Virus record (IMG/VR): IMGVR_UViG_3300045988_183127
Source: a virus
Reading direction: 5' to 3' (one strand)
Length of the DNA stretch: 64,000 bases
Each line of letters begins with the position of its first letter. Position 1 is the first letter of the stretch. A model generated the notes under the pieces. That model had not been told where the DNA came from. It saw only the letters and a program-made list of their open reading frames with translations, and ran no database searches. This document shows positions 2,244-23,171 of this stretch, one piece after another. A program made the translations under genes and the position numbers.

Positions 2244-2761
2244 TACATGTATTTTATAGGAACATACAAAATTATATTTAATGTATTTTTGTCATAAGTT
2301 AAATCAAAGTTATCTGATTCAGAATATGTTATTTCACTTAAAGGTAACTTATATTCAGAATATATGCTGCTATTTTTTTTAAAATAAAAAAGCTCTGTAA
2401 AATCTGATTGAAAATATACTTCTTTATTTATGTCTATTTCTTGAATAACCTTTTTTAAAGCTATTATTTTATCCCAATATTCTGAATTTTTAATACCTAT
2501 AACAGTGGAATCAATGTCTTTGCTGATACATATAAATAAACTTAAATATATAAAAACACTAAAACCTATTAATGCAATTATTGAAATAAATGTAAGTTTT
2601 ATAATCAAGCTTATAATTCTTAAAATAAAACATATAAGAATACCTGCTAAAACAATTTTAGTTATTCGTTTTTTTGATAAAGATTTATTAATATTTTCAT
2701 CAGTCGCATTATCAAAATTAATATTCAAATATTCGTTATGTGTTTTTAATTTTAAATTCAT
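2240..2761 (-). CDS. hypothetical membrane protein
   Basis: 173-aa ORF with two hydrophobic helices; start overlaps previous stop. Confidence 0.45.
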   Translation of the reverse strand: MNLKLKTHNEYLNINFDNATDENINKSLSKKRITKIVLAGILICFILRIISLIIKLTFISIIALIGFSVFIYLSLFICISKDIDSTVIGIKNSEYWDKIIALKKVIQEIDINKEVYFQSDFTELFYFKKNSSIYSEYKLPLSEITYSESDNFDLTYDKNTLNIILYVPIKYMY

Positions 2762-2854
2762 ACCTTATTCTCCTACTATTAATGATTCTTTATTAATTTT
2801 GTCTTTTTGATTTTTTATATCAGTATCATCAAATGTATCAAAATTTTTCCTTTT

Positions 2855-2968
2855 TCTTTATTTGATATTTTGAATTAAAGAACAACCATCAATATCAAAA
2901 ACAACTGTTTTATTTTTTTTCTCAACTGGCAAAATAAATCGTCTCTGTTATCCCCAAATTTATCCCTA
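2855..2968 (-). pseudogene. frameshifted remnant of a paralog of the C-terminus of the 3398..4072 gene
   Basis: reverse strand translates DKFGDNRDDLFCQLRKKIKQ / (frame change) KTVVFDIDGCSLIQNIK*, matching RFRDDRDDLFQLKKGKTVTFDIDKGSLIQDIK* of 3398..4072; ~110 nt nucleotide similarity to 3398-3510. Confidence 0.45.
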
Positions 2969-3382
2969 CTATAAATTAAGATTAATTTCCTTTTCTATTG
3001 TATTTTTAGGAACGTACAGCTTAATTTCTTTAATTCCTAATGAAGTCTTCTTTATCTCTGCATAAGCCTGTTCATCATTGTTTAATGTATCATAGATTGT
3101 TACTTTATCTCTGTTCATCTTGAAATACTTCTTACCATCGTCTTCTGTAATCCGATAAGCTGTTATGTATTCCTGTGAATCAATATTTCCCGAACCTAAT
3201 ACAAATGAGCCTTCATATTCTTTATCCGTGCTGATACTGTAAAGCTGGGCTTCTTCTGTGGTTTCTTTTGAAAATTTCTTAATTTCATATCTAAGCCCAA
3301 GCTGCAATGCTGTTATAATCGAAATAAGTGTAATACTAAATGTTAAACATATAACTAAATTAAAAATTTTATCTCTATTCAT
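2969..3382 (-). CDS. hypothetical protein with N-terminal signal anchor
   Basis: 137-aa ORF; hydrophobic N-terminus LVICLTFSITLISIITALQLGL. Confidence 0.5.
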   Translation of the reverse strand: MNRDKIFNLVICLTFSITLISIITALQLGLRYEIKKFSKETTEEAQLYSISTDKEYEGSFVLGSGNIDSQEYITAYRITEDDGKKYFKMNRDKVTIYDTLNNDEQAYAEIKKTSLGIKEIKLYVPKNTIEKEINLNL

Positions 3383-5158: not shown

Positions 5159-5670
5159 AGTTTTATCTCTTTTCTAAGGATTGGTTCATACTCTGCTAAT
5201 TCTTCATCATTCTCAATTAAAGGTACTTTCTGTATTACTGTCTTGGTTGTAATAACCTTATTACCGTTCTCATCAGTGGACTCTTCCTTTTCCGTTGATT
5301 CTACAGTTGTAATAACAGACTTTAGAAAAGCAATCTGTTCATTACGGCTCATATGTCTGAATTTCTTTAAATCATCCTGTGATATATCATCAAGCAAACA
5401 ATCATAAAGAATTTCTTTTTCATGTTCTTTCTCAAAAAATTTTGTAAAAGCTATCCATATAAGAGCCGTTACACTGACTAACAAGGTTATCACTGTAACT
5501 ATAGAATTTTTAAGACTTGCATTAACAACTACCGGTAATATTCCCATAAGCAAGGACATAAACGCCTTATCCATAAGAGTCATATCGTATATGTTTGCAG
5601 TCACAAAATAAAAACTAAGCATAATCAATGAAACAACAAAGACTACATTTATTAATATAGTTATAATCAT
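5155..5670 (-). CDS. hypothetical membrane protein
   Basis: 171-aa ORF; N-terminal ~80 aa hydrophobic. Confidence 0.5.
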   Translation of the reverse strand: MIITILINVVFVVSLIMLSFYFVTANIYDMTLMDKAFMSLLMGILPVVVNASLKNSIVTVITLLVSVTALIWIAFTKFFEKEHEKEILYDCLLDDISQDDLKKFRHMSRNEQIAFLKSVITTVESTEKEESTDENGNKVITTKTVIQKVPLIENDEELAEYEPILRKEIKL

Positions 5671-5708
5671 CTTTCTCTTTCCTTTCTGTTTTATATATAT
5701 TGTATTGT

Positions 5709-6644
5709 TTATTCTATTTTATTTAATTCACCTGATTCTTTGTTAAATATAAATATATCTGAACTCAGATAATCTTCTTCTTCCTGAATACCAAATATCT
5801 TTAATGCTATTTGAATTTCTTCAGGAGTAAATTCATCGTATTTACATATCAACAAAATATGTGCTGTAACAGGAACAATGTATAAATTTGTTTTCAGTTT
5901 CTCTGAAATATTCTTAAGCAAATTATTATTCAAAATTGCACTTGTATTATAAAAGTCAATTATATTTTGAATTGCATATATTCCTTTAATACATTTGCTC
6001 TCAAACCCGTCAGAATTACTTAGAAAATATAATTCTTTCTTTGTTTTTTCATAATTATCATCATCTGCCAGTTGTGTCAAAAAATAATCACCTAATACAC
6101 TGATAAAATATTTGTTGGAATATATTGAATGAATTGCAAGATTGTACAATTCGTTTTCATTAATTTTCAGTATGTTCCTCATATAGTTATTATCAATTAC
6201 AAACATTGTACCTTCTGAATTTTCTTTAGGTATGATCACATTATAAATTATTTCGAACTCATAAAATGGCCTATGAGGAATACCGCTTAAATTTTCCATA
6301 TTGTCCGGCTTTTGTATTAATTGAGGCATAATATAGTGTTTTATATCATTTAAATTAATTTCTGGAGTTAAATTATTAAGTTTATATTCACTACCATTAG
6401 AATTTTCGTTTCTATAAAATGCTTCAGATATTGACAATGCAATTTCTTCTATTGACGAATTATTTAAATATTGTTTATATAATTGATTTAATTTAAATTC
6501 TAAGGGACACATAAACTGATTTTTAGAATGAAAAATAAGCTTATCTGATGTGTAAACTATATCTGTTGGTGTAATATCTTCAATATTTTGAAGTAATTCG
6601 AATTTAAGATGTTTAAGAAAATCTTTATAATTCATTTTTTGCAT
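5709..6644 (-). CDS. hypothetical protein
   Basis: 311-aa ORF; TTCTGTCATA box 38 nt upstream. Confidence 0.5.
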   Translation of the reverse strand: MQKMNYKDFLKHLKFELLQNIEDITPTDIVYTSDKLIFHSKNQFMCPLEFKLNQLYKQYLNNSSIEEIALSISEAFYRNENSNGSEYKLNNLTPEINLNDIKHYIMPQLIQKPDNMENLSGIPHRPFYEFEIIYNVIIPKENSEGTMFVIDNNYMRNILKINENELYNLAIHSIYSNKYFISVLGDYFLTQLADDDNYEKTKKELYFLSNSDGFESKCIKGIYAIQNIIDFYNTSAILNNNLLKNISEKLKTNLYIVPVTAHILLICKYDEFTPEEIQIALKIFGIQEEEDYLSSDIFIFNKESGELNKIE

Positions 6645-10388: not shown

Positions 10389-12074
10389 TTAGCATTTGCG
10401 TACTATTGAAGGTGCTGACATATCAGGGTTAATGAATTTCTTGCATAAATGTTCAATTCCGGTTGTTGAATCAAGCCAATATAAATAATCCCCGTCATTA
10501 TCTACCAGATATTCATTAATAGAATCAAGAACATCGTTTACTTCGGAAACAGTACAAATAAATCTATATGAAGACTTATTTTTCTTTAAAGGTTTAACAG
10601 ATTTAGCAATAATCTGATATACAGTTTCGTCATCTGAAGATCTAAAATCATCTACTTGAATTTTTCCTGATAAACATAATTTAGCATCATTAACAAGTAA
10701 GTCTCTAATATTTGCATAATCTTTAGAAAAACATACACCATTAATAGAACCTGTTTTATCTTCTACCTCAAAAGTTACCCATTCGTATCCATTTCTATCC
10801 TTTCTTACAACAAGATTTTTAATTATACCAGATACATCGTTAACTTCTGTTGAAATATCAGAAATGGGATCTGTATAAATATTATACTCATCAATTGGAT
10901 GCCCTGTAATATAAACGCCTAACACTTCTTTTTCATCATTTAGAATCTGACCTAAATCATCTTCTACATAATCAATATCTATATTTTCAAGATCATCTTC
11001 TAAGCTTTCTATAACTGTCTTAGCTGAATTGATACGTTTAATTATGGAATCTTTAGTTGGCATCTTTTTTGAAGTAACTTGAAAGGAAATATTTTCTTCT
11101 GAAATTCTTTCCTTAAACTCATCAAGATCAATATAATCTTCCACAAATTCAATAACTTTACTTGCGTTTTCAATAAACTTACTCTTCTCTCTGATTTTCT
11201 TAATTGTATCCTGAATTTCTTTCATACAAATCATATCTAATGATATCATTGTTCTTGTATAACCAAGGCAATCGAAAGCACCTGCTTTAATTAAGGAACT
11301 TAATGCTTCTGCATTAATATTTGTTCGTTTGATAAAATCCTTAATATCAGAATATTCTCCATTAACATTTCTATCTTCAATAATTTTAGCTGCTTCTGCT
11401 CCAACATTCTTAATATTACTCAGACCATACAAAATGTTCCCATCTACAACATCACAATGTAAATTTGAAGCATTAATGTCCGGAGGCAATACCTTTACTC
11501 CAAAATCAAGGGCATCACTAATATCATCAGCGACTTCATCAATCTTATCAGTATGATTTATTACATTTGTAAGATAATAAGCCGGATAATAATACTTAAG
11601 AAAAGCTGTCCAATATGATGTAACAGCATAAGCAGTGGCATGTGACTTATTAAACGCATACTTAGCAAAGTCAACCATTGCATCCCAAATCTTATGAGCT
11701 ATAACTTCTGGAATTCCATTTGCAATACAACCTGGTACTAATGCTTCATTTTCTTTTTTAGTATCAGCATTACCATATACAAAAGTGTGTCTTTCAGCAT
11801 CAATCTCATCCTGATGTTTTTTTGACATAGCTCTACGGACTAAATCAGAACGCCCCCATGTATATCCTGCTAAATCACGAACAATCTGCATTACCTGTTC
11901 CTGATAAACTATCTGTCCATAAGTAGTTGACAAAATTGGCTCTAATTGAGGACATAAATATTTAATCTTAGATGCATCCTTTTTACCTTCTATGAAATCA
12001 GGTATAAACTTTTCAGGACCAGGACGATATAAAGCATTCATTGCTATTAAATCTTCAATACCTGTTTTATTCAT
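10389..12074 (-). CDS. DNA polymerase III alpha (DnaE-like) C-terminal half: fingers/OB, separately encoded
   Basis: begins IEDLIAMNALYRPGP, has YGQIVYQEQVMQI, FNKSHATAYAVTSYWTAFLKYYYPAYY and an OB-fold-like region. Confidence 0.85.
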   Translation of the reverse strand: MNKTGIEDLIAMNALYRPGPEKFIPDFIEGKKDASKIKYLCPQLEPILSTTYGQIVYQEQVMQIVRDLAGYTWGRSDLVRRAMSKKHQDEIDAERHTFVYGNADTKKENEALVPGCIANGIPEVIAHKIWDAMVDFAKYAFNKSHATAYAVTSYWTAFLKYYYPAYYLTNVINHTDKIDEVADDISDALDFGVKVLPPDINASNLHCDVVDGNILYGLSNIKNVGAEAAKIIEDRNVNGEYSDIKDFIKRTNINAEALSSLIKAGAFDCLGYTRTMISLDMICMKEIQDTIKKIREKSKFIENASKVIEFVEDYIDLDEFKERISEENISFQVTSKKMPTKDSIIKRINSAKTVIESLEDDLENIDIDYVEDDLGQILNDEKEVLGVYITGHPIDEYNIYTDPISDISTEVNDVSGIIKNLVVRKDRNGYEWVTFEVEDKTGSINGVCFSKDYANIRDLLVNDAKLCLSGKIQVDDFRSSDDETVYQIIAKSVKPLKKNKSSYRFICTVSEVNDVLDSINEYLVDNDGDYLYWLDSTTGIEHLCKKFINPDMSAPSIVRKC

Positions 12075-12110
12075 TTTAAATTTCTCCTTTCAATTCATAA
12101 CTATATAATT

Positions 12111-12120
12111 TATGACAGAA
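12111..12120 (-). promoter_or_regulatory. TTCTGTCATA box (representative type A: terminator hairpin + T-run + box)
   Basis: box 38 nt upstream of DnaE C-terminal gene ATG; hairpin AGCGTCCAA/TTGGACGCT at 12131-12150 abuts it. Confidence 0.6.
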
Positions 12121-12160
12121 AATTAAAAAAAGCGTCCAATTTTGGACGCTTGCATAAATA

Positions 12161-12466
12161 TTAAAAAGAATACTTGTTACATATATTTTCTTTTATATAA
12201 GTGATCAAATTTTTAGCATAATCTATTCTGTCTTTTAATTTATCAATATCATTAATATCATATGAAATATTACCAGTAATACTAATATAAAAATCATCTT
12301 TTATGGTTTTAATTTCAATATCATAATATGGAATCTTTGGAGTAAAAAAAAATCTTATGACTTTACCTGTTCTTGAATCTCTTCTTAATAGAATTTTATA
12401 TGTTTTATTATCGTATTCATCTATTATCCATGGACCGGATTCATATGTTCTAATAAAAGTTACCAT
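12161..12466 (-). CDS. hypothetical protein
   Basis: 101-aa ORF. Confidence 0.45.
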   Translation of the reverse strand: MVTFIRTYESGPWIIDEYDNKTYKILLRRDSRTGKVIRFFFTPKIPYYDIEIKTIKDDFYISITGNISYDINDIDKLKDRIDYAKNLITYIKENICNKYSF

Positions 12467-12849
12467 TATCTTATTTCTTCCTCTCTGTTATCTTTATTAA
12501 TTTTAGTATGAATTACATCTGGCATAATTTTATCTTCATCATCTTCTCCGCCTAAATCTAAATCAATATCTGATAGTTCATTTGTGTCAATATTGTTTGT
12601 TATATTACTAATATTAACACTTTTACAATTTTGAGTCATTGCCTTTATAACATCATCTATAGTTTTAGCATCTCTACCGATTCCGTCAAGATAAAAAGCA
12701 GCCGTTACCTGGGCGCAAAAATCTGCGATTATATGTCTATCAGTTGTTTCAGGGCAAAACTTAGGAACATTATAATATTCACAATCTCTATTGATTTGGG
12801 AACACGCAGCTATTGCAGCTTCATGTTTAATTCTCCGATTTTTATCCAT
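12466..12849 (-). CDS. hypothetical protein
   Basis: 127-aa ORF. Confidence 0.45.
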   Translation of the reverse strand: MDKNRRIKHEAAIAACSQINRDCEYYNVPKFCPETTDRHIIADFCAQVTAAFYLDGIGRDAKTIDDVIKAMTQNCKSVNISNITNNIDTNELSDIDLDLGGEDDEDKIMPDVIHTKINKDNREEEIR

Positions 12850-13046
12850 AGACTGAATAGCTTCTCGTAATTCTTCTCCCTCAAGTGTAGCATATTTAAT
12901 TGGAGTTGAATAGTTTTGATGATAAACAATCTGTACATATTCTCCAAATGCGCCATATTGTAATTTAACATATCTAAATCATTCTCTCTATATTCATTAT
13001 CTGGCGAATTTATTGCATTTACTAATTCCTTAAATTCTTTAATCAT
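12810..13046 (-). CDS. hypothetical protein
   Basis: 78-aa ORF overlapping next gene by 40 nt; box 41 nt upstream. Confidence 0.35.
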   Translation of the reverse strand: MIKEFKELVNAINSPDNEYRENDLDMLNYNMAHLENMYRLFIIKTIQLQLNMLHLREKNYEKLFSLWIKIGELNMKLQ

Positions 13047-13146
13047 ATTTTTTTACTCTCCTTCCATTTATTGTTATAATAAATAAATGACAGAAAAATA
13101 AAATAACAAGTACCCATTAATAGGTACTTGTTATTAAGCATTTGTT

Positions 13147-13593
13147 TTAATTTGAATTACTCTTATCATGTACAAAATATAATTTTTGTATTAATTCAGA
13201 TTTTCTTTTTTCATACTGAAATAAATCATTACATTCACATGATAAAAAACTTGCAGCAGAATCAATCTGTTTTACAATTTCCTTTACTATACAATCAATG
13301 ATTTCCTTTGGTGATTCCAATAGTTTAATTAGGCCTAAATGCTCCCCTTCATGAATTATGAAAGCTGTATCTGGTGTCAAAACTAGCGTTGCTGTAGAGC
13401 CTTCAGAATCAAAATAACAGGATGCCGTATTATTGTTATAATAATTAATGCACATATCTAATAAGTCATTTGGGACATCAGTTAAATATGAAGCGTTCAC
13501 TCTACAATTTGTCTTTTCGAATTTAATATTACACCAACCATTTGTTAAAATTTCAATTATCATGATTTTCTCCTTAAATATAATTATAGGCAA
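13147..13593 (-). CDS. hypothetical protein
   Basis: 148-aa ORF. Confidence 0.45.
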   Translation of the reverse strand: MPIIIFKEKIMIIEILTNGWCNIKFEKTNCRVNASYLTDVPNDLLDMCINYYNNNTASCYFDSEGSTATLVLTPDTAFIIHEGEHLGLIKLLESPKEIIDCIVKEIVKQIDSAASFLSCECNDLFQYEKRKSELIQKLYFVHDKSNSN

Positions 13594-14465
13594 ACAATGT
13601 TGCCATTTTTAAGTATACTTATAATACTGTTAAGTTCATACAAACCTAATATCTGCTCACTAATTTCATTTAACATATTATCTGATACATTAGCGTTATA
13701 AGCATCAAGTTCTACATCTGTTTTTATTGTTGCTAAAATTTTTGACAACAAAATATTATCTTCACTATTTATTAAACAAGTTGAAATACTTTTTCCTTTA
13801 GACATATTAGATTCAATATCTGAAATATTCATATATATGTTAAACAAATTTCCATACTTATGTATTAGTTTACTTGCAGTTTTAGGACCAATACCTGCAG
13901 CTCCAGGAATATTATCCGATTTATCTCCCATTAATGTTTTTACATCAATAAACTGTTTAGGAGTAACGGAATACTCATTCATAATTTCTACCGGAGTCCA
14001 AATATCTTCCGGATTGTTTGGAACAACTAATGATACTAAATCATTACATAATTGTAACAAATCATGATCTGCAGATATAATATTAACCTTATTTCCGGCT
14101 TTACTTTCAATGGTTGAAATTGTTCCTATAATATCATCTGCTTCATATCCTTCTTTTTCAATAACACATATATTCATTGTTTTAAGAATAGGAACAATAG
14201 CCTGTCTCTGAATCTTAAATTCTTCCGGTGCAGGATCTCTAGTTGCCTTATACCCGTTATACATTAAATGCCTGAAAGTTGGCTTTGCAGTATCAAACGC
14301 AACAATTAATTCATCAGGACTATACTTTTCTTTCATATATAGAATTGTATTTAAAGCTCCTTTAATTGCATTAGTCGGAAATCCCTTTGAGGTTTTTAAT
14401 TCTGGAACACCGTAAAAAGATCTTCTGAGAATATAATTCCCATCAAAAATCATAATATTTTTCAT
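13584..14465 (-). CDS. 5-3 exonuclease / flap endonuclease (PolA N-terminal-like)
   Basis: H3TH motif LMGDKSDNIPGAAGIGPKTASKL; start reassigned to MKNIMIFDG because SD AAAGGAGAAAA and the box lie just upstream (track start 14540 lacks both). Confidence 0.85.
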   Translation of the reverse strand: MKNIMIFDGNYILRRSFYGVPELKTSKGFPTNAIKGALNTILYMKEKYSPDELIVAFDTAKPTFRHLMYNGYKATRDPAPEEFKIQRQAIVPILKTMNICVIEKEGYEADDIIGTISTIESKAGNKVNIISADHDLLQLCNDLVSLVVPNNPEDIWTPVEIMNEYSVTPKQFIDVKTLMGDKSDNIPGAAGIGPKTASKLIHKYGNLFNIYMNISDIESNMSKGKSISTCLINSEDNILLSKILATIKTDVELDAYNANVSDNMLNEISEQILGLYELNSIISILKNGNIVCL

Positions 14466-14573
14466 TAATTTTTCTCCTTTATAATTTTTAATATATTTAT
14501 GACAGAAAAAAAGCAGGAAACATAAGTCTCCCGCTTTCAAAAAATCTTATTCAGTTATGAAAAATTAAGATAT

Positions 14574-14831
14574 TCAATTTCTTTCACTTAAGAATTTTTC
14601 CACAGCATCTTCAACAGCTTCATATTCAGTAAGACCGTTACCTTCTGCGTAAGTATCATAAGCTGCTTCACCAATATCAATATAATCATTCTCAGTAATA
14701 TCAGAATGATACTGAGGCTGAATAATCTCTTTAGCTGTATTAATCATCCATGTTGAAACAAATTCCTTATGAGCCTTATAAATCTCATCATCTGTTAATT
14801 TTATTTCCTTACCATTTCTTATTATTGCCAT
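14574..14831 (-). CDS. hypothetical protein
   Basis: 85-aa acidic ORF. Confidence 0.45.
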   Translation of the reverse strand: MAIIRNGKEIKLTDDEIYKAHKEFVSTWMINTAKEIIQPQYHSDITENDYIDIGEAAYDTYAEGNGLTEYEAVEDAVEKFLSERN

Positions 14832-14843
14832 TATTTATTCTCC

Positions 14844-15113
14844 TTAGTTGTTATTATTTTCATCAGAATTATCATATATGACGCTTTCAATTATATTAAC
14901 TGCTGTATCTACATAAATAACTTCCTCGCCATCATCGTTAGAATATCCATCGTCATCATATGTACTTTCAGTCAGCCAACTTGCCTCAGAAACTTCTTTA
15001 GAAGCTTCTGAAATCTCGCTTATTAAAGTATTTTTAATGATATTCAACATATTCTTTTCTGTTTCTGATTCTGAAGTTTTAATAAAGTCATTTATAATAT
15101 TTAAAGTTTTCAT
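14844..15113 (-). CDS. hypothetical acidic protein
   Basis: 89-aa ORF. Confidence 0.4.
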   Translation of the reverse strand: MKTLNIINDFIKTSESETEKNMLNIIKNTLISEISEASKEVSEASWLTESTYDDDGYSNDDGEEVIYVDTAVNIIESVIYDNSDENNNN

Positions 15114-15128
15114 AAAATTCCTTTCTTT

Positions 15129-15587
15129 TTACAATGTACTTTTTATAACCTTAACAGGTTCTAATCTGCCGTTTATAAATGAAGCAGTTCCTAATGTTTT
15201 ATCAGTATTTTTAGAAGATTCAAAGAAATCATTTGCCATATCCTCATTTGAAAAATATGAATATTCTCCTGAATTGTCTCCGCAATCTGACTCATATCCT
15301 ATCCAAACATAATAAAATGAAAATCTTTCAAGGCTATCACTGTTGTCAGGGATTTCTCCATCCCAATCATCATTTTCTTTTATATCTTCTTCTAATTCAT
15401 ATTTAAACTCGCTCATCATATTAGGATCGTCTAAATACACACATTTATGGTAATTATCAACTGCAATTGCGCATTTCTGTCCTAATGGATGCAGTAAATA
15501 ATTCTTAGGCACTTCCAATAATGCTCCTATCATATCATTTACTGTTTCTAAGTTATTTTCCTTAATTTCAAATGCATTAGTTTTCAT
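15129..15587 (-). CDS. hypothetical acidic protein
   Basis: 152-aa ORF. Confidence 0.45.
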   Translation of the reverse strand: MKTNAFEIKENNLETVNDMIGALLEVPKNYLLHPLGQKCAIAVDNYHKCVYLDDPNMMSEFKYELEEDIKENDDWDGEIPDNSDSLERFSFYYVWIGYESDCGDNSGEYSYFSNEDMANDFFESSKNTDKTLGTASFINGRLEPVKVIKSTL

Positions 15588-15671
15588 AATTTTATTCTCC
15601 TTTTTAAATTTTATAATAATACAATGACAGAAAAATAAAAAAACTGGCTACTAATAGTAACCAGTTTAATT

Positions 15672-16661
15672 TTATAACTTTACAATTTTCTCATTAACTT
15701 CCATTCTAAATGTATTGATTTTGTCTATATCCGGCTCATCTGGCAATACAGAGTTTTTACATGCATTTTCAAACTTATTCTTGTATTCATCTACTATTTC
15801 AAAGAAATGTTTATTAGGGATTCCATTTTCATCAAGATATACACCATTTCTAATATCCATCAACAAATCATGTTCTTTAATTCTTTTCGTTTGAATTTTC
15901 CCTTCAGAAACTAAATCAATTCCCATCATATACAATCTAAGTAAATGCATACTATGTTTTGCTATTTTACCATGATTTAATGCATGTTCATTCCTTTTAC
16001 TTGTTTTCCGATAATCTCTTAAAGTGTTATTAAATTCCGAAAGCATTCCTGACAAATCTTCTATTGAACACTGTGTTGCAATAATATTGCATTTGATTTT
16101 GCCATCAACCAAATAAAAAGACACATTATTTTCATCTAAATTGTACTTATCGTTCATTTTCTTGGACATATTATTAAGCACTCCAGAAATGTGTCTATTT
16201 AATTCTTCTTCCGTTAAAGCAGCGTTAGTCTTCTGCTGCATACGGTATAACTGTTGTAATGCATATTCACTAAATGTATTAATACATCTATTCGATAAAA
16301 AAATATCTTTATTTTTTAATAAAAGCTCCCCAATTTCATTTTTATAAATATAATCATCTGTATCTAATCCTAAAAGTTCAATAGTGTTTGGATTGCATTT
16401 TGTTAATAAATCAATAATTTTGTCAAAACTATAAATAGTTGTATCTGTATTAACGTCTACAAAATTTTCAAAATCATTACCTAACAAGATATCTTCTTTT
16501 CTTCTAACAGCAACTCCTCTTATATCAATATCGCTTTCTGGAAGATTTGTCCCATATGCTCTGCTACCACCTAATCCAAGTATACAAATATTCTTATCTA
16601 AATTTTGATTTTCCTTTAAAAATGAATACTCAGGCATATTTAATATATTTTTATTTATCAT
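15672..16661 (-). CDS. Pol-beta superfamily nucleotidyltransferase
   Basis: GLGGSRAYGTNLPESDIDIRGVAV (GS..SDxD) near N-terminus, second acidic cluster LDTDD ~55 aa later. Confidence 0.55.
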   Translation of the reverse strand: MINKNILNMPEYSFLKENQNLDKNICILGLGGSRAYGTNLPESDIDIRGVAVRRKEDILLGNDFENFVDVNTDTTIYSFDKIIDLLTKCNPNTIELLGLDTDDYIYKNEIGELLLKNKDIFLSNRCINTFSEYALQQLYRMQQKTNAALTEEELNRHISGVLNNMSKKMNDKYNLDENNVSFYLVDGKIKCNIIATQCSIEDLSGMLSEFNNTLRDYRKTSKRNEHALNHGKIAKHSMHLLRLYMMGIDLVSEGKIQTKRIKEHDLLMDIRNGVYLDENGIPNKHFFEIVDEYKNKFENACKNSVLPDEPDIDKINTFRMEVNEKIVKL

Positions 16662-16683
16662 ATTCTCTTTCCTATCCTTGTAA

Positions 16684-16740
16684 TTGAATTACCCACAACT
16701 GGCTATTGTCGGTTGTGGTTTTTTTGCTTAATTGCGATAA
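16684..16740 (-). repeat. divergent copy (c5) of 57-bp 5-prime UTR repeat family
   Basis: TTATCGCAATTAAGCAAAAAAACCACAACCGACAATAGCCAGTTGTGG on gene strand, directly upstream of the nucleotidyltransferase SD. Confidence 0.5.
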
Positions 16741-16750
16741 TATCATTCTT

Positions 16751-17383
16751 TTATTTTCTAACAATAGCAGAAAAATCTACTGACTGTAAAATCTTAATGA
16801 TATCTTCTACTTCAGGACTTCTCCATGCAGTCATAGCATAGGTATGAGCGTACTCATCGTAATGATAATGATTTGCCTTTAGATGTTCAGCGGCTGCCTT
16901 TTCTGTTAAAAACATTGTGTTTTCATAAATTTTATCTCTATATGCATAACAGGTGAAAGTATATCTGCCATAATTATGCTCATTCAACCAAGTCTTTAAA
17001 TCATCAAGATCAGCTAAACATTCCTCATAATCATTATCTTCTTTTGATGTAACATAATATCCATCATATTCTTTTGAAATAACCCAAGAATCACCGTTTT
17101 CTTCAAATTCCTTATTAAAAAATACAATTGCATCATCAATATTATCAGCAACTTCTTCTACAGCTTCATTATCGATTAGTGTTACACCGTCTTCATATCC
17201 TTCTGGAACAATACACTTTTCTTTTCCCATAATAACCCAAAATCGAGGATCAGCTTGTCCTACATGGTCCTGTGTATTTAATTCATGCTGCAAATCAGAC
17301 AAAAATTTAATTTCTTTATCTGTAATTTTATGTTTCTCTACTGTGTCTGGATGGTATTGTAAATGTTCATGAAATATTGCCAT
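16751..17383 (-). CDS. hypothetical acidic protein
   Basis: 210-aa ORF. Confidence 0.45.
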   Translation of the reverse strand: MAIFHEHLQYHPDTVEKHKITDKEIKFLSDLQHELNTQDHVGQADPRFWVIMGKEKCIVPEGYEDGVTLIDNEAVEEVADNIDDAIVFFNKEFEENGDSWVISKEYDGYYVTSKEDNDYEECLADLDDLKTWLNEHNYGRYTFTCYAYRDKIYENTMFLTEKAAAEHLKANHYHYDEYAHTYAMTAWRSPEVEDIIKILQSVDFSAIVRK

Positions 17384-17410
17384 ATTTTTCTCCTTAAACT
17401 TTATTTATTT

Positions 17411-17647
17411 TTATTCAGTATAGTATTGAAATGCACAATCATACATTTGTTTCCCAGTTATCTGATCTACAAATATAGGGCAATGCCAATCCTTATCAAA
17501 TTCTGTTTCCTTACACCATTCATTAATAACTCTAGTAGTAATTGGTGTGACAAATACATATAAATCTGATTCATGGTGAAATATATCTTTTGCAGAATAT
17601 CCAGCCTCAATAAACCGTTGCATAAGAGTTTTATTATTTTTCTCCAT
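17411..17647 (-). CDS. hypothetical protein
   Basis: 78-aa ORF. Confidence 0.4.
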   Translation of the reverse strand: MEKNNKTLMQRFIEAGYSAKDIFHHESDLYVFVTPITTRVINEWCKETEFDKDWHCPIFVDQITGKQMYDCAFQYYTE

Positions 17648-17696
17648 AATATTGTTCTCCTTTATTTATTATAATTTAAAAGAAATATGACAGAAA

Positions 17697-17725
17697 AAAC
17701 GCACATCATAATGACATGCGTTTTA
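17697..17725 (-). terminator. intrinsic terminator after the DnaE N-terminal gene
   Basis: stem AAAACGCA/TGCGTTTT followed by a T-run on the gene strand, fused to the TTCTGTCATAT box. Confidence 0.6.
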
Positions 17726-17751
17726 ATACAAAATATTCAATTAACTATTCA

Positions 17752-18507
17752 CTATGAGCATAACTTCTTAAGGTTATTCCTCATACCGGCTGACTCAAAC
17801 TGGAAAACATTCTTAGTTCTTCCTTTTGCATATACTTCTTTGTATACCTTATCAGCTTTAGGACCCTCTAATGGAATATTCATTACATCAATTACTTCTC
17901 CTGTATCTCTCTGAATCATTCTGAGTGTGTCAGTAATAATTGTAAGAGTTTTTAATCCAAGAAAATCCATTTTTAATAATCCATTAGCTTCGCACTGAAT
18001 CATGTCCATTTCTGTAGTTTTAATTCCCTTTTTTCCATCTCTAATAGGAATATAATCAGTAACATCATTACTATCATAAATAATAACACCTGCGGCATGT
18101 TGTCCGTATGTCGTAAGCATACCTTCACAATGAGCTGCAATATTAAGAATAGAAATAGCATCTGGATTACTATTATATTCATCCTTTAAGAAATCTAACA
18201 AAGAAATGCTGTCCTGAATATTAATGCCTAATTCATCAACCTTATTAGTATCTTTCATGCCAACAATATCTTCAAAATTAGTTGCTTTAGCAGGCACTTT
18301 CTTACGAATCTGATCTCCTAAAGATAAGAATTTCTTTTCATCATCATAAGCTTTCTTTCCATAATATCTTGCAGCATCTCTGATAGCACCTTTAGCCTGC
18401 TGTCTTGATTCTGTAATAATTCCAACAACAGCTTCACTACCATATTTAGCTCTTACATACTCAATTGTCTTTTCTCTTACTCCAAGAGCAAGATCGCTAT
18501 CGATATC
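17752..18507 (-). CDS. DnaE-like polymerase N-terminal gene, exon 2
   Basis: begins DIDSDLALGVREKTIEYVRAKYG...AKGAIRDAARYY, ends FQFESAGMRNNLKKLCS*; track start is a TTG inside the intron. Confidence 0.8.
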   Translation of the reverse strand, partial: DIDSDLALGVREKTIEYVRAKYGSEAVVGIITESRQQAKGAIRDAARYYGKKAYDDEKKFLSLGDQIRKKVPAKATNFEDIVGMKDTNKVDELGINIQDSISLLDFLKDEYNSNPDAISILNIAAHCEGMLTTYGQHAAGVIIYDSNDVTDYIPIRDGKKGIKTTEMDMIQCEANGLLKMDFLGLKTLTIITDTLRMIQRDTGEVIDVMNIPLEGPKADKVYKEVYAKGRTKNVFQFESAGMRNNLKKLCS

Positions 18508-18932
18508 CAAATATACCCCTACTTTCGTAGTACTTTAACACTTGTATAAGTGGGATTAGACTATATCTCAATATAATATTGTTAATATTATATTTCAACG
18601 CACTTCCAACTGTAACCATTCTCAGTTGTACTCCTTAAAAAGGATAGTCGTTACACTTTAAAATAAATAATATTATATACGAACAATTTTTTATTTATAT
18701 AATATTATTTATAATCTTAGCACGGTATCGCCTGCTATCCTTCAATATCTTTTATATAAAAATATTAGGACCGTAGGTTCTCTTACGAAGCTGCTTCGTC
18801 TATGGGTTAAGCTATATATCCTGTTGTGACACTTTATATAGCAGTCTTATTCAACTTCTACCGTTAGCACTTAATAATAAAATATTAAGCACACCTCTGA
18901 GTTAGAGTCCACGCTGAACGCCCAATATATTT
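18508..18932 (-). ncRNA. putative group I self-splicing intron (ORF-less, ~425 nt) in the DnaE gene
   Basis: interrupts the conserved ERVSMP|DIDxD motif; exon 1 ends with U, intron ends with G; GC-rich structured-looking sequence with stops in all frames. Confidence 0.6.
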
Positions 18933-20726
18933 AGGCATACTTACTCTTTCTGGATTTAAGAATCGTTCAAAAATCAGATTATACTTAAATGGATCAATTC
19001 CGGTAATACCAAGTAAATATGTAACCAATGAACCGGCACCTGAACCTCTTCCAATGCCTATTCCAATTCCGGTATTATAATTGTGAGCCTTAACATACTC
19101 TTTTGCACCTTCAATTGTTAAAGGTACTTCTGATAGTTTATCCATAGGTACTAATCCACAAATTCTTCCATATTCCAAGAAGTCCTTTACAATTAAATGA
19201 TAATCGGCAAAGCCCATCTGAATGATAATATTAAGTTCGTATTCCATTCGTTTCTGATGTTCTTCATCCCATCCTTTTCCGTTAGGATATCTCCAATTAA
19301 TTCCCTTAATTGCTTCAGATCTTAATAATTCGTTTGAGTCCTTATTCTTATCAAATACTGGATAATGATTAGATTTTTCTGGAATATAAGCACATCTTTT
19401 CCCAATTACATTTAAGTTATTAAGTGCTTCTGCAACCTGATCATCTGTTAATATAGCTGATAAAGCCTGAGCAAGTTCGTAAGGTGTCTTTACATATAAT
19501 TCTTTATCTGATTCCGACTCACTTATCTTAATAAATCTTAAAAATTTAGCTACATTACGCATATCAATACTTCTATCAGAATTATCTGCCATATGTGCAT
19601 CATTAGCAGCAACTAATGGGATATTATGCTTCCTTGCTAACTGAGCTAACACAGGATATGTCCTGCTTTCCATTTCAAGTCCATGATTCTGAACTTCAAT
19701 GTAATAATTACCTGCTCCAAAAATTTCCTGATAAAAAAGCATTGTCTTTTCTGCTTCAGACATTAATTCTATTGGACTTTTCTTTAATGATTCATAATGC
19801 TGTATCTTATTTTCATGATTAATGTATTCCTCTACCTTAAGACTTATATCCTTTAACTCGGCTTTCTTAGCATTAACTAATTTTCTGACATTAGGAATTT
19901 TATCTTTAGCTTCCAGAATTTTATTATTTATCTCCTCATATTCATTAATCAGTTTAATAAGCTCTGGATCATCATCATTTAAACACTTCCTTGCATCTCT
20001 TAATTTTCTTGAGATCTGTGTCCTTTCTGATTTAAGTTCCTTGGAATCACGAATATTAATCAATTCATCTAAATCTGCCGATACCCTTTCAAATTCATCT
20101 TTAGCTGAAAGATATTCTTTATCATCAGGACTTATACAATCACGTATCACTAGCTCGTCTTTTTCAGTAGTATGCTGCTGTGCTTTTCTTTCTCTGTTAA
20201 TCATTTTATCCAAAACATCATCTGATAATAATTGCAGAGCTGGTGCACCCGAAACGCAAGCAGAAGTTGCTATTATATCACCGTTAAAGTTATATTTCTT
20301 TAAATCTGATATTGTAATAACAGGCTTTCCCATTCTTTTTTCAGAAGCCTTAGAATTTAACTTATCAATAATATGCTTGCCTCTTTCTGAAGTGGCTAAC
20401 ATAATAATATGGCCAATCTGTTCATTTATCTTAAATGGTGGCACTTCAATATAAGCCTCTACGCCATAAATGATATTAAATGGATGTTCCTCAGTACTTA
20501 TTTTCTTAGCGTAATCAATACATGTTTGCATTGCTGAAAATGATGCATGGTCCGTAACAGCAAATTTAGTATATCCTGCATTAAATGCAGCATCTAAATA
20601 ACTTTTAGGTTCATCTACGGCATCAAACAAAGAGCCTCCTGGATGGTTATGTTCACACACTGTAACTCCTGATTCAATAACCTTTTTTGTTAATTCTCCA
20701 ATTTTTACATGTTCAAACATTGACAT
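18933..20726 (-). CDS. DnaE-like polymerase N-terminal gene, exon 1 (PHP domain, palm)
   Basis: ends [40 protein letters not shown]; track ORF then reads 14 intron codons ([15 protein letters not shown]) to a stop. Confidence 0.8.
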
Positions 20727-20837: not shown

Positions 20838-21989
20838 TTATTCTACCTTAACAACGTCTCCTCTATCTGATGTTTCAGTAATAACAATATACTTGATTTC
20901 CATATTGTCGTTTGCAAGAGCAATTCTTGTTACATTATCTTCCTTACTTGTATCGACAATCCAATCATATCCTTCAACTGCAGACATTATCTTTGAATCA
21001 GTAATGATTTTATCAACATACTCTCCAATCATAATTCTGTCTTCAAGTCTGATAAAATCAGCACTATTCCAACCAATTGAAACAGATTTAATATGTGAAG
21101 GGATATTAATGCTATTGAGCCTCATTAATGTACCACCATTAAGAGCAATCATTTCTGCTTTAATATGATCCATTTCGATTAATTCCTTAGTATTAGTAAT
21201 TGTATCTAAATGATAATCACAATTATTGCATTCATCATAATCTCCACAATCATTTTCGCAGTCATAACCACAATCACAATCAGGATTATAATAATTATTA
21301 TCACATACCTGCTCTGTATATTCAATGACCCATGTAGGTACATTCATTGAATTTCTTACAGTAATGACATTATTTATTGGTGCGTCAAGCATTAAATAAC
21401 TTGAAATATAATTCTTTGCACCATCATAAACGATAATTTCAGCATTATCAAAATATTCAGCGAAAATATCTTTTCCATTAAAATCCTTCTTTGTTTCAAA
21501 GTGTGTATAGGAAGTCTTTAGTATCACATATTTGTCACATACACCTATAACTTCCGGCATTGGAATTGAAACTGGAATAAGTTTCTTAAACTTATCCTCA
21601 TCCGGCTTATAAGCAAATAAATCAATATAATCATCATGTTCTGTTGTGTTTTCTCTAGGCAATACAGATAATAAAAGCTTACCTGGAACAGATGTAACGA
21701 TACTCTTAATTACCAGTGAACCCTGCTGTGTAGCAGCAACACCATCCTTGAGTAAAATTCCGTCTTCAACTGAATATCCATCTGGAATATCTGGGACATT
21801 AGGATTGCTGATAAGTCTAAAAGCAATTGCGTTAGATGATGATATCATAACAGATATATCCTCGTTTACTTCACCATTTTCTAAAAGACAAGCCGTTCCT
21901 ACGCCATCGGTAACAGATGTAATTAAATACTGTCTGTTGTCAACCTTGTTTAATACTGTTACATTTTCTAAAATTTTGTTTTCTCTCAT
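20838..21989 (-). CDS. hypothetical protein, paralog A, with Cys/Asp-rich insert
   Basis: N-terminus ENVTVLNKVDNRQYL and C-terminus TRIALANDNMEIKYIVITETSDRGDVVKVE match 22122..23171; insert CDNNYYNPDCDCGYDCENDCGDYDECNNCDYH. Confidence 0.5.
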   Translation of the reverse strand: MRENKILENVTVLNKVDNRQYLITSVTDGVGTACLLENGEVNEDISVMISSSNAIAFRLISNPNVPDIPDGYSVEDGILLKDGVAATQQGSLVIKSIVTSVPGKLLLSVLPRENTTEHDDYIDLFAYKPDEDKFKKLIPVSIPMPEVIGVCDKYVILKTSYTHFETKKDFNGKDIFAEYFDNAEIIVYDGAKNYISSYLMLDAPINNVITVRNSMNVPTWVIEYTEQVCDNNYYNPDCDCGYDCENDCGDYDECNNCDYHLDTITNTKELIEMDHIKAEMIALNGGTLMRLNSINIPSHIKSVSIGWNSADFIRLEDRIMIGEYVDKIITDSKIMSAVEGYDWIVDTSKEDNVTRIALANDNMEIKYIVITETSDRGDVVKVE

Positions 21990-22121: not shown

Positions 22122-23171
22122 TTACTCTATGGTTATGATGTCTCCTCTATCTCTTGTTTCAGAAATCACAAGAGTCTTTATCTCCATAGTATTTGTATTA
22201 GCAAGAGAAATTCTTGTAACATGATCCTTAGATGTAATATCAACAATCATATTGTAACCTGCAAGCTCAGCAACTATCTTATCTGGGATCTTATATGTGA
22301 TATCATTAATATACCACTTGCCTGAAGAAGCTTTAATCAGGCTTGCATTATATCCCTTTGAAATTGATTCTGGCACACTGTCAATTGCTGTTGTCTTATA
22401 AAGACTTAATGAATGGCCTTCAGAAGCAACAAATCTTAATGTAATATAATCATCTTCCTTAATAACTCCATCAGAATCGACTACTGTATCTGCTTCAATT
22501 GCGAAAATTGTTTCATTAGGTGCCTTAACAGAATCTACAGCCTTAATTGGCTCCGCAAAAGAAACATGATCAACAACTGCATCAGACATTACATCATATA
22601 ACATGATTGCTGCAGCATCAAAAATATTATCTGTTTCAATAGTTCCATCTTCAAGCTTCTTATCCTTAGTATAAGTTCTTGAATATGTTATATATAACTG
22701 CATCTTATTCTCAGAAGAAGCAATGATTGTAACTTCTGGAATAGATCTTCTGATAAGCTTATTAAACTTATCTGACTCAACTGTATATGACATAATATCG
22801 AAATAACCTTCTCTTGGTTCTCTTGGTTCAACAGATAAAATAAGTCTTCCTGCAACACCTACAATAATACTATTAATTACAAGTGAACCCTGTTCTGTAG
22901 CAGGGACTCCATTCTTAAGCAAAATTCCGTTTTCTACAGTATATCCAGTTGGAACATCTGGAATATTAGGATCATCAATCAGCTTGTAAGCTATTGCATT
23001 ATTAGCTGTAATTACTGCAGTAACCGAATCATCAAGTGAACCATCCTCCTTGATTAACTTGGCTGTTCCTTTAATGGAATCACCCGAACCATCAACATTA
23101 ATTACCTGGTAATTCTTACGGTCTACCTTGTTTAATACTGTTACATTAGTCTTAATCTTGTTTATTCTCAT
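22122..23171 (-). CDS. hypothetical protein, paralog B
   Basis: TNVTVLNKVDRKNYQ ... TRISLANTNTMEIKTLVISETRDRGDIITIE; own box at 22028. Confidence 0.5.
   Translation of the reverse strand: MRINKIKTNVTVLNKVDRKNYQVINVDGSGDSIKGTAKLIKEDGSLDDSVTAVITANNAIAYKLIDDPNIPDVPTGYTVENGILLKNGVPATEQGSLVINSIIVGVAGRLILSVEPREPREGYFDIMSYTVESDKFNKLIRRSIPEVTIIASSENKMQLYITYSRTYTKDKKLEDGTIETDNIFDAAAIMLYDVMSDAVVDHVSFAEPIKAVDSVKAPNETIFAIEADTVVDSDGVIKEDDYITLRFVASEGHSLSLYKTTAIDSVPESISKGYNASLIKASSGKWYINDITYKIPDKIVAELAGYNMIVDITSKDHVTRISLANTNTMEIKTLVISETRDRGDIITIE

Follow-up and report, generated by a model that had tools for sequence, protein, structure and literature searches.

A probable phage IA-type group I intron without its homing-endonuclease gene at the catalytic motif of a viral dnaE gene

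Group I introns of subgroup IA2 have been characterised in the gene orf142 of phage Twort and in the genes rec, pol, and lysK of Kayvirus (G1/K/MSA6). The DNA polymerase genes of the Bacillus phages SPO1 and SP82, which code for a family A polymerase, contain introns carrying the HNH endonucleases I-HmuI and I-HmuII. For dnaE, interruption by inteins and split inteins is known, e.g., in the cyanobacterial split DnaE, and these elements lie in frame and act at the protein level (PMC2677866).

Here, a dnaE gene was analyzed which is located on the minus strand of a stretch of 64,000 nucleotides of virus DNA (IMG/VR record IMGVR_UViG_3300045988_183127), called the window in the following. An original prediction, made from the sequence without database searches, had placed an ORF-less group I intron of 425 nt at the conserved SMP|DIDxD motif of this gene, and all of its coordinates were correct. 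The upstream ORF (20726..18885, minus strand) codes for 613 amino acids and contains the Pfam domains PHP and DNA_pol3_alpha, the latter covering the profile positions 55-102. Its homologous part ends with the codons ATG CCT (M, P), CCT being located at 18935-18933, and 15 non-homologous codons (14 in the original count) lie between SMP and the stop. The downstream ORF (18510..17752, minus strand) starts with a TTG, which is followed by DIDSDLALGV... and by the profile positions 103-260 of DNA_pol3_alpha. The first base of exon 2 is 18507, and the exon opens with GAT ATC GAT AGC GAT (DIDSD). The insert between both parts has the 5′ end AAAUAUAUUGGGCG and the 3′ end ...GGGGUAUAUUUG.

The protein obtained by joining CCT (18935-18933) to GAT (18507-18505) aligns without gaps to DnaE of Thermus aquaticus through the junction, which, together with an empty site in a close relative described below, bears out the predicted in-frame split. 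The break sits immediately before the catalytic aspartates and splicing would restore SMP-DID, so that the gene would depend on splicing. For annotation, the two ORFs should be merged, giving join(20726..18933,18507..17752) for the minus strand, and the replicative polymerase of this phage would accordingly be neither a pseudogene at 18933/18507 nor a pair of fragments. Stop codons were found in all three frames of the insert, as had been predicted. The insert had also been described as richer in GC and more structured than its surroundings. The former does not hold, as its GC content is 0.306 vs. 0.34 and 0.35 in the flanking 300 nt of exon (0.284 in the whole window). The latter does: its minimum free energy is −102.1 kcal/mol, compared to −81.8 ± 5.6 kcal/mol for shuffled sequences (z = −3.6), none of 100 shuffles being equally stable. 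The features of the locus are listed in Table 1.

Table 1. Position of the dnaE exons, the probable intron and its modelled RNA elements in the window (numbers in brackets are intron positions).
Feature	Position	Strand	Description
dnaE exon 1	18933..20726	-	PHP domain and first portion of the Pol III alpha catalytic domain (Pfam); C-terminus ...ERVSMP
Probable group I intron	18508..18932	-	425 nt without intact ORF; preceded by exon U 18933; final nucleotide G 18508 (omega-G)
P1	18918..18938	-	Exon AUGCCU and intron A1A2 paired with 8-15 (UUGGGCGU); 8 bp; loop AUAUA; RNAalifold
P3, 5′ strand	18910..18916	-	(17-23), 1-2 nt after P1, no P2; 7 bp with (331-337)
P3.1 and P3.2	18867..18907	-	P3.1 (26-38), P3.2 (41-66); hairpins between P3 and J3/4
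P4, P5, P5a/P5b arm, P5d	18722..18864	-	P4 (69-74/206-211), P5 (75-78/143-146), P5a/P5b arm (91-122), P5d (163-195)
P6 and P6a	18655..18721	-	P6 (212-214/276-278), with covariation; long AT-only hairpin P6a (221-270), loop 18680-18695
P7, 5′ strand	18644..18649	-	GACUAU (284-289); preceded by J6/7 GUAAC
P7.1 and P7.2	18607..18643	-	P7.1 (290-300), P7.2 (305-326); extra hairpins typical of subgroup IA
P3, 3′ strand	18596..18602	-	(331-337), between P7.2 and P8; P3/P7 pseudoknot
P8	18570..18594	-	Hairpin (339-363); present in 15/15 members, sequences unrelated
P7, 3′ strand	18559..18564	-	AUAGUC (369-374), inside the conserved J8/7-P7 element GAGAUAUAGUCU
P9, P9a, P9b	18516..18554	-	Three-way element; P9 (379-381/415-417) encloses P9a (382-393) and P9b (403-414, GAAA tetraloop)
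dnaE exon 2	17752..18507	-	Begins with DIDSD (catalytic aspartates), ends with ...FQFESAGMRNNLKKLCS-stop; Pfam DNA_pol3_alpha 103-260, finger 1-59
C-terminal part of DnaE	10389..12074	-	561 aa (rest of finger, HhH, OB); separate gene, not joined by intron

Two close relatives, the contigs L003 and L004, were found by searching IMG/VR with the joined DnaE protein. L003 shows 97.6-98.4% identity to the window across 17 kb. It aligns to the window positions 27224-18933 and then directly to 18507-9756, so that exactly the nucleotides 18932-18508 are missing, which is far beyond chance. The junction of L003 reads AGT ATG CCT GAT ATC GAT within the intron-less site AGTATGCCT|GATATCGAT, and its protein runs unbroken through ...SMP|DIDSD.... 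As this empty site lacks exactly the 425 nt, the intron boundaries are fixed independently, and the U at 18933 and the G at 18508, named by the original prediction as hallmarks of group I splice sites, stand at exactly these boundaries. A relative with 36% identity is also uninterrupted at this place (...SRVSMPDIDSD...).

The second contig, L004, contains the same intron with additional sequence. Both introns are identical up to a 515-nt difference (242 nt, 5′ side) and again after it (184 nt, 3′ side). The 515 extra nucleotides of L004 are inserted at intron position 242 in the loop of P6a, which corresponds to 18680-18695 of the window, and comprise a Shine-Dalgarno sequence (AAGGAGGTG), an ATG and an ORF of 172 amino acids (L004 7317-7835) with the Pfam domains HNH_3 (E = 5.9e-9) and NUMOD4. 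The window copy has no sense-frame ORF of more than 40 amino acids and encodes no homing endonuclease within the intron. Its P6a still contains the final codons of the HNH ORF, AAA ATT GTT CGT ATA TAA (K I V R I stop), and the endonuclease was therefore most likely lost by deletion. The sequence comparison thus identifies the window copy most likely as a deletion derivative of an endonuclease-carrying intron. The window and L004 show no substitution in the intron, the 246 nt before it and the 404 nt after it, while the flanks differ by about 1%.

Accordingly, three states of the site exist among phages of about 98% identity: an empty site (L003), an ORF-less intron (window) and an intron with an HNH gene (L004). 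These three alleles would represent three stages of a proposed homing cycle, consisting of invasion, loss of the endonuclease and eventual loss of the intron. The window copy would now be mobile only with an endonuclease supplied in trans, e.g., during co-infection. L004 also carries an insertion of 1.67 kb (L004 1040-2708, corresponding to window position ~23280), which is missing from the window and encodes a protein of 449 amino acids on the opposite strand. The Pfam matches of this protein to OrfB_IS605 (22.9 bits, cut-off 30.5) and to Cas12f1-like TNB are weak and below the threshold; the insertion is possibly a mobile element of the TnpB type.

The fold of the intron was drawn from an alignment of 15 sequences, from RNAalifold runs on sub-blocks and by inspection. 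In P1, the U at 18933 (U-1) forms a wobble pair with G 18923 (G10) at the 5′ splice site, and this U·G was found in 12 of 14 aligned members. The internal guide GGGCGU corresponds to the intron positions 10-15 and pairs with the exon end AUGCCU, as anticipated by the original prediction; exon and guide covary in the relatives (GC, AU or CG). P3 is paired in 95.9% of the cells with two to four pair types per column. Hairpins with differing sequences are present at the place of P3.1 and P3.2 in 14-15 of the 15 members, and J3/4 reads UAA. The P4-P5 region holds the family signature GUUGAAUAAGAC...GACGAAGC. P4, P5, P5b, and P5d are 93-100% paired and show compensatory changes. Both strands of P5 are altered jointly in the window (GAAG/CUUC vs. 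the consensus UCAG/CUGA) and the pairing is kept.

P7, the other element named for verification, is present as GACUAU/AUAGUC. It is invariant in all 15 members and agrees with the Rfam consensus AGACUA and with Twort. Since P7 never varies, its support comes from the sequence and not from covariation. In the alignment to the RF00028 consensus, AACGACUA and GAGAUAUAGUCU are placed with high posterior probability, and both are the same as in Twort. P7.2 shows compensatory changes at all six pairs, with 100% of the cells paired. The intron ends with UAUAUUU, followed by G425. This terminal G is present in all eight dnaE-site relatives, and the two bases before it vary (UUG, AUG, UAG, AAG). As only the G is conserved before exon 2, there is no conserved start codon.

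The support for the fold was counted over 56 pairs in 12 helices, using a MAFFT alignment of 15 members whose sequences had been trimmed in P6a. The fraction of paired cells is 94.4%, compared to 74.8 ± 0.9% in shuffles and 35-39% when the partners are slid by one to three columns. Compensatory changes on both sides were found at 36 of the 56 pairs, and the covariation score is 0.505 vs. 0.07-0.12 for slid partners. None of 500 shuffles attained the observed pairing or covariation values. Variation occurs at all or almost all pairs of P3, P5b, P7.2, P9, and P9b. The helices P3.1, P3.2, P5a/b, P8, and P9a, which MAFFT did not bring into register, fold at the same place from unrelated sequences in 13-15 of the 15 members. 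Two other pairings were rejected. A 5′ strand of P3 placed canonically, beside J3/4 (intron 62-66), is paired in 65.7% of the cells, compared to 95.9% for the strand chosen, and fails in phage G and phi127. The hairpin ACGAAGC/GCUUCGU (intron 134-148), which belongs to the minimum-free-energy fold of the window copy, is unconserved; its 3′ half pairs with 75-78 as P5 instead.

A profile HMM was built from 21 relatives, leaving out the window sequence, and applied with nhmmer. It matches the window at 18943-18497 on the minus strand with E = 8.2e-68 and 223 bits, this being the sole copy in the window, which agrees with 100 of the 102 columns that are near-invariant among the other family members. 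The covarying core, this profile match and the intron-less and endonuclease-bearing alleles in 98%-identical phages corroborate the proposed ORF-less group I intron. The nucleotides 18932-18508 on the minus strand are thus very probably a phage IA-type group I intron which has lost its homing-endonuclease gene, with splicing itself being predicted.

According to the model, the exon end AUGCCU of the dnaE pre-mRNA and the guide GGGCGU would form P1 with the U·G wobble at the splice site. The core, consisting of P3-P8 with the P3/P7 pseudoknot, P4-P6, P7.1/P7.2, and P9, would bind a guanosine in P7, which would attack after U 18933. The freed exon would then attack after the terminal G 18508, and ligation of the exons would give ...ERVSMP-DIDSD..., so that the Pol III alpha motif with the catalytic aspartates would be restored. 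From this modelled fold, the window intron would be expected to be self-splicing.

By blastn against GenBank phages, the insert was located in three further genomes: in a Staphylococcus phage SPbeta-like (KT429160) between dnaE_2 and dnaE_1, in Mammaliicoccus phage phi127 (PV389080) at a locus annotated as DNA polymerase and homing endonuclease, and in Bacillus phage G at gp329 (DnaE-like) and gp330 (homing endonuclease). In all three, the insert is located at the same codon boundary (..LP|DIDID..), starts with AAA/AAG...UUGGG and has a final G. The intron is unannotated there, and dnaE of the SPbeta-like phages, phi127, and phage G needs the same join correction. Twort-like phages, in their annotated introns, and Streptococcus thermophilus phages, in the interrupted region, match only the 3′ part of the insert. 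Further members at the dnaE site were found in the contigs L008, L009, L016, L023, L024, L028, L029, and L040, the one in L016 being compact with about 355 nt.

A signature pattern of the P5 region was detected in 37 IMG/VR contigs, nearly all with the P7 motifs at the expected distance, and relatives were confirmed in about 30 IMG/VR contigs and a few Firmicute genomes. The pattern scan of bacterial genomes gave 22 matches, where about 30 are expected by chance (20 specified bases, 596 Gb); five of them were confirmed by the profile. Furthermore, the P4-P5 domain was found in 31 GenBank phage records, none of which is annotated there, including Lak megaphages, Fusobacterium phage Fnu1, and Enterocloster, Clostridium, and Enterococcus phages. 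Such matches of the P5 region are located, e.g., in Prevotella phage Lak-B1 (MK250020, 290972-291037) and in Fusobacterium phage Fnu1 (MK554696, 52661-52724). The conserved P5 region at unannotated places of phage genomes suggests that there are more unannotated introns of the same type.

Besides the dnaE site, two other insertion sites of the family were observed. One interrupts DnaE-like genes within the finger domain (exon end ..SYMFG or ..FGMSFGY; Pfam DNA_pol3_finger E = 1e-19 and 8e-11), the other in a Toprim-domain gene (exon end ..FMADADVD; Pfam Toprim E = 1e-7). Introns at other sites are present in the contigs L034 (~5400-5800), L013, L015, L012, L010, and L037 (~2600-3000). The class of endonuclease differs between introns with the same dnaE site and the same P6a loop: L004 has HNH_3 and NUMOD4, phi127 has GIY-YIG and NUMOD3 (Pfam), and gp330 of Bacillus phage G resembles GIY-YIG by eye. 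Endonuclease genes in same-site introns are located at 7317-7835 in L004, at 4240-4848 in L002 and at 3260-4057 in L006.

Detection by RF00028, which had been proposed as a check, did not succeed. At the gathering threshold Rfam gave no match anywhere in the window, and a joint search over L001, L002, and L004 at E <= 1 gave no intron match. When a narrow region of 651 nt was scanned, the window copy reached 23.2 bits (E = 0.0011; cut-off 50); a compact relative scored 15.8 bits, compared to 63.6-100.9 bits for the three introns of Twort orf142 used as control. Such sub-threshold matches were obtained only from scans of narrow regions, with clearly wrong alignments of the 5′ half, whereas P7 and J8/7 align to the consensus. 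The original prediction was to be given up if a P3-P7-P9 core could be neither folded nor detected by covariance models: the core is foldable with covariation, and the match to the Rfam covariance model stayed below the threshold. The low score is probably caused by the atypical 5′ half, in which, unlike the textbook order, P2 is lacking, P3 is followed by two hairpins before J3/4 and the P4/P5 junction has a third helix. As to subgroup IA, P7.1/P7.2 are present, but P2 and a 5′ strand of P3 adjacent to J3/4 are absent. The 3′ half belongs with the IA2 introns of phages, its J6/7-P7, P7.1/P7.2, J8/7-P7, and P9 being like those of Twort and Kayvirus.

A pairing P3.1 is recognised as an optional element of group I introns (PMC3873408). 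In a literature search of incomplete coverage, no description of a group I intron in a phage dnaE gene or of architectures with P3.1/P3.2 was found. It is therefore conceivable, though rather doubtful, that the window intron and its relatives form an undescribed structural subclass of group I introns, specialised on replication genes and consistently overlooked by the group I model of Rfam, so that the host genes are annotated as split. The traits of this candidate subclass are the lack of P2, the 5′ strand of P3 straight after P1, the pair of hairpins separating P3 from J3/4, and a three-way P4/P5 junction with the invariant single-stranded motifs GUUGAAUAAGAC, GACGAAGC, and CUAAGAGA. The family may also simply be a known subgroup, the order of elements being unusual as judged against RF00028 and the Twort introns. 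The standard Rfam model detects the Twort introns yet misses the window family, and for this reason phage and metagenome pipelines will go on reporting such genes as broken.

An alternative to the functional intron would be a splicing-dead relic, with DnaE made as two polypeptides which assemble non-covalently: the 613-aa ORF and a fragment translated from TTG 18510 with the RBS GGGG (18516-18519). The same dnaE gene is indeed split into separately translated pieces further downstream, a TTG and a purine run are present before exon 2, and the annotators of the Staphylococcus SPbeta-like phage also treated dnaE_2 and dnaE_1 as separate genes. However, the break would then lie between SMP and DID within the catalytic motif, and 15 junk residues would be added to the product of the upstream ORF. 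Among the relatives, no start codon is conserved ahead of exon 2, the triplet being UUG, AUG, UAG or AAG, and the GGG of the purine run is the covarying 3′ strand of P9. In addition, 100 of the 102 conserved positions of the ribozyme core are intact, the core is equal to that of the endonuclease-bearing copy, and the strands of P5 have changed jointly in the lineage of the window. A relic of this kind is therefore highly unlikely.

Even less probable, and hardly to be expected at all, is an element of another type, i.e., a group II intron, an intein, a transposon or MITE, translational bypassing or an assembly artefact. Nothing specific speaks in favour of these except that the Rfam scan of the window at the gathering threshold is empty. 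The stops in all frames exclude an intein, and no group II model matched 18400-19050 even at E <= 10, nor was an ORF for a reverse transcriptase found. The junctions show neither a target-site duplication nor a terminal inverted repeat, and 425 nt are well past the known lengths of bypassing. The identical element in the independent assembly L004 and the same site in the genomes of cultured phages argue against an assembly artefact.

The DnaE polymerase of the window is broken a second time within the Pfam finger domain (profile positions 59/63). The spliced N-terminal gene has its stop at 17752 (...FQFESAGMRNNLKKLCS), which is followed by a terminator-like hairpin at ~17693-17724. The gene for the C-terminal part has its own AAGGAG and ATG (12074), and its N-terminus reads MNKTGIEDLIAMNALYRPGP. 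A second intron or a split intein was considered for this break and rejected, given the terminator-like hairpin after the stop and the separate Shine-Dalgarno sequence and ATG; moreover, the extra residues are only CS and MNKTG, none of them intein-like, and the window has no second copy of the profile. Between both DnaE pieces (12075-17751) lie about 5.7 kb with roughly 12 ORFs, among them genes for a 5′-3′ exonuclease (13584-14540) and an RlaP-like nucleotidyltransferase (15672-16661). L003 and L004 share this split into two genes, and the 36%-identical relative L045 (2282-6412) has a single unbroken DnaE of 1376 amino acids.

Other replication proteins of phage type encoded in the window are two helicases, a RecJ-like exonuclease and a sigma factor. 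The closest relatives of the window in GenBank are phage scaffolds from the human gut, with a DnaE identity of at most 36%. Just upstream of dnaE, two adjacent ORFs (20838-21989, 383 aa, and 22122-23171, 349 aa) resemble paralogues, having similar N-termini (M..NKI..NVTVLNKVD) and C-termini (..TRI(A/S)LAN...I.ET.DRGD..); neither was assigned to a family.

The loci of the SPbeta-like phage KT429160, phi127, and phage G are among the known systems close to the window intron. They agree with it in the insertion point (P|D-I/V-D), the fold and the signatures, with 69-76% nucleotide identity, and share the exon-final U, the intron-final G and a P1 guide covarying with the exon. The differences concern the content of P6a, which is a GIY-YIG gene in phi127 and phage G and a short ORF remnant in the SPbeta-like phage, compared to the HNH gene of L004 or the scar of the window, and the host phages, whose DnaE identity to the window phage is only about 30-36% or less.

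The IA2 introns of Twort and Kayvirus share J6/7-P7 (GCAACGACUAU), P7.1/P7.2, and J8/7-P7 (GAUAUAGUCU) with the window family, and the annotated rec intron of Kayvirus shows 86-88% identity to the last ~55 nt of the window intron, i.e., the P9 region. However, the Twort introns have a P2 and a 5′ strand of P3 next to J3/4 and score 64-101 bits with RF00028. In the window family, P2 is missing, P3 and J3/4 are separated by two hairpins and the P4-P5 domain is enlarged, the score being 16-23 bits.

The introns of SPO1 and SP82, which were likened by description, resemble the window family as group I introns in a phage replicative polymerase gene with an HNH endonuclease, as in L004, but the host polymerase belongs to family A there and is DnaE in the window. 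Finally, the DnaE inteins have in common with the window element that a selfish element interrupts dnaE at a conserved site; the window element differs from them in being an RNA fold with stops in every frame.
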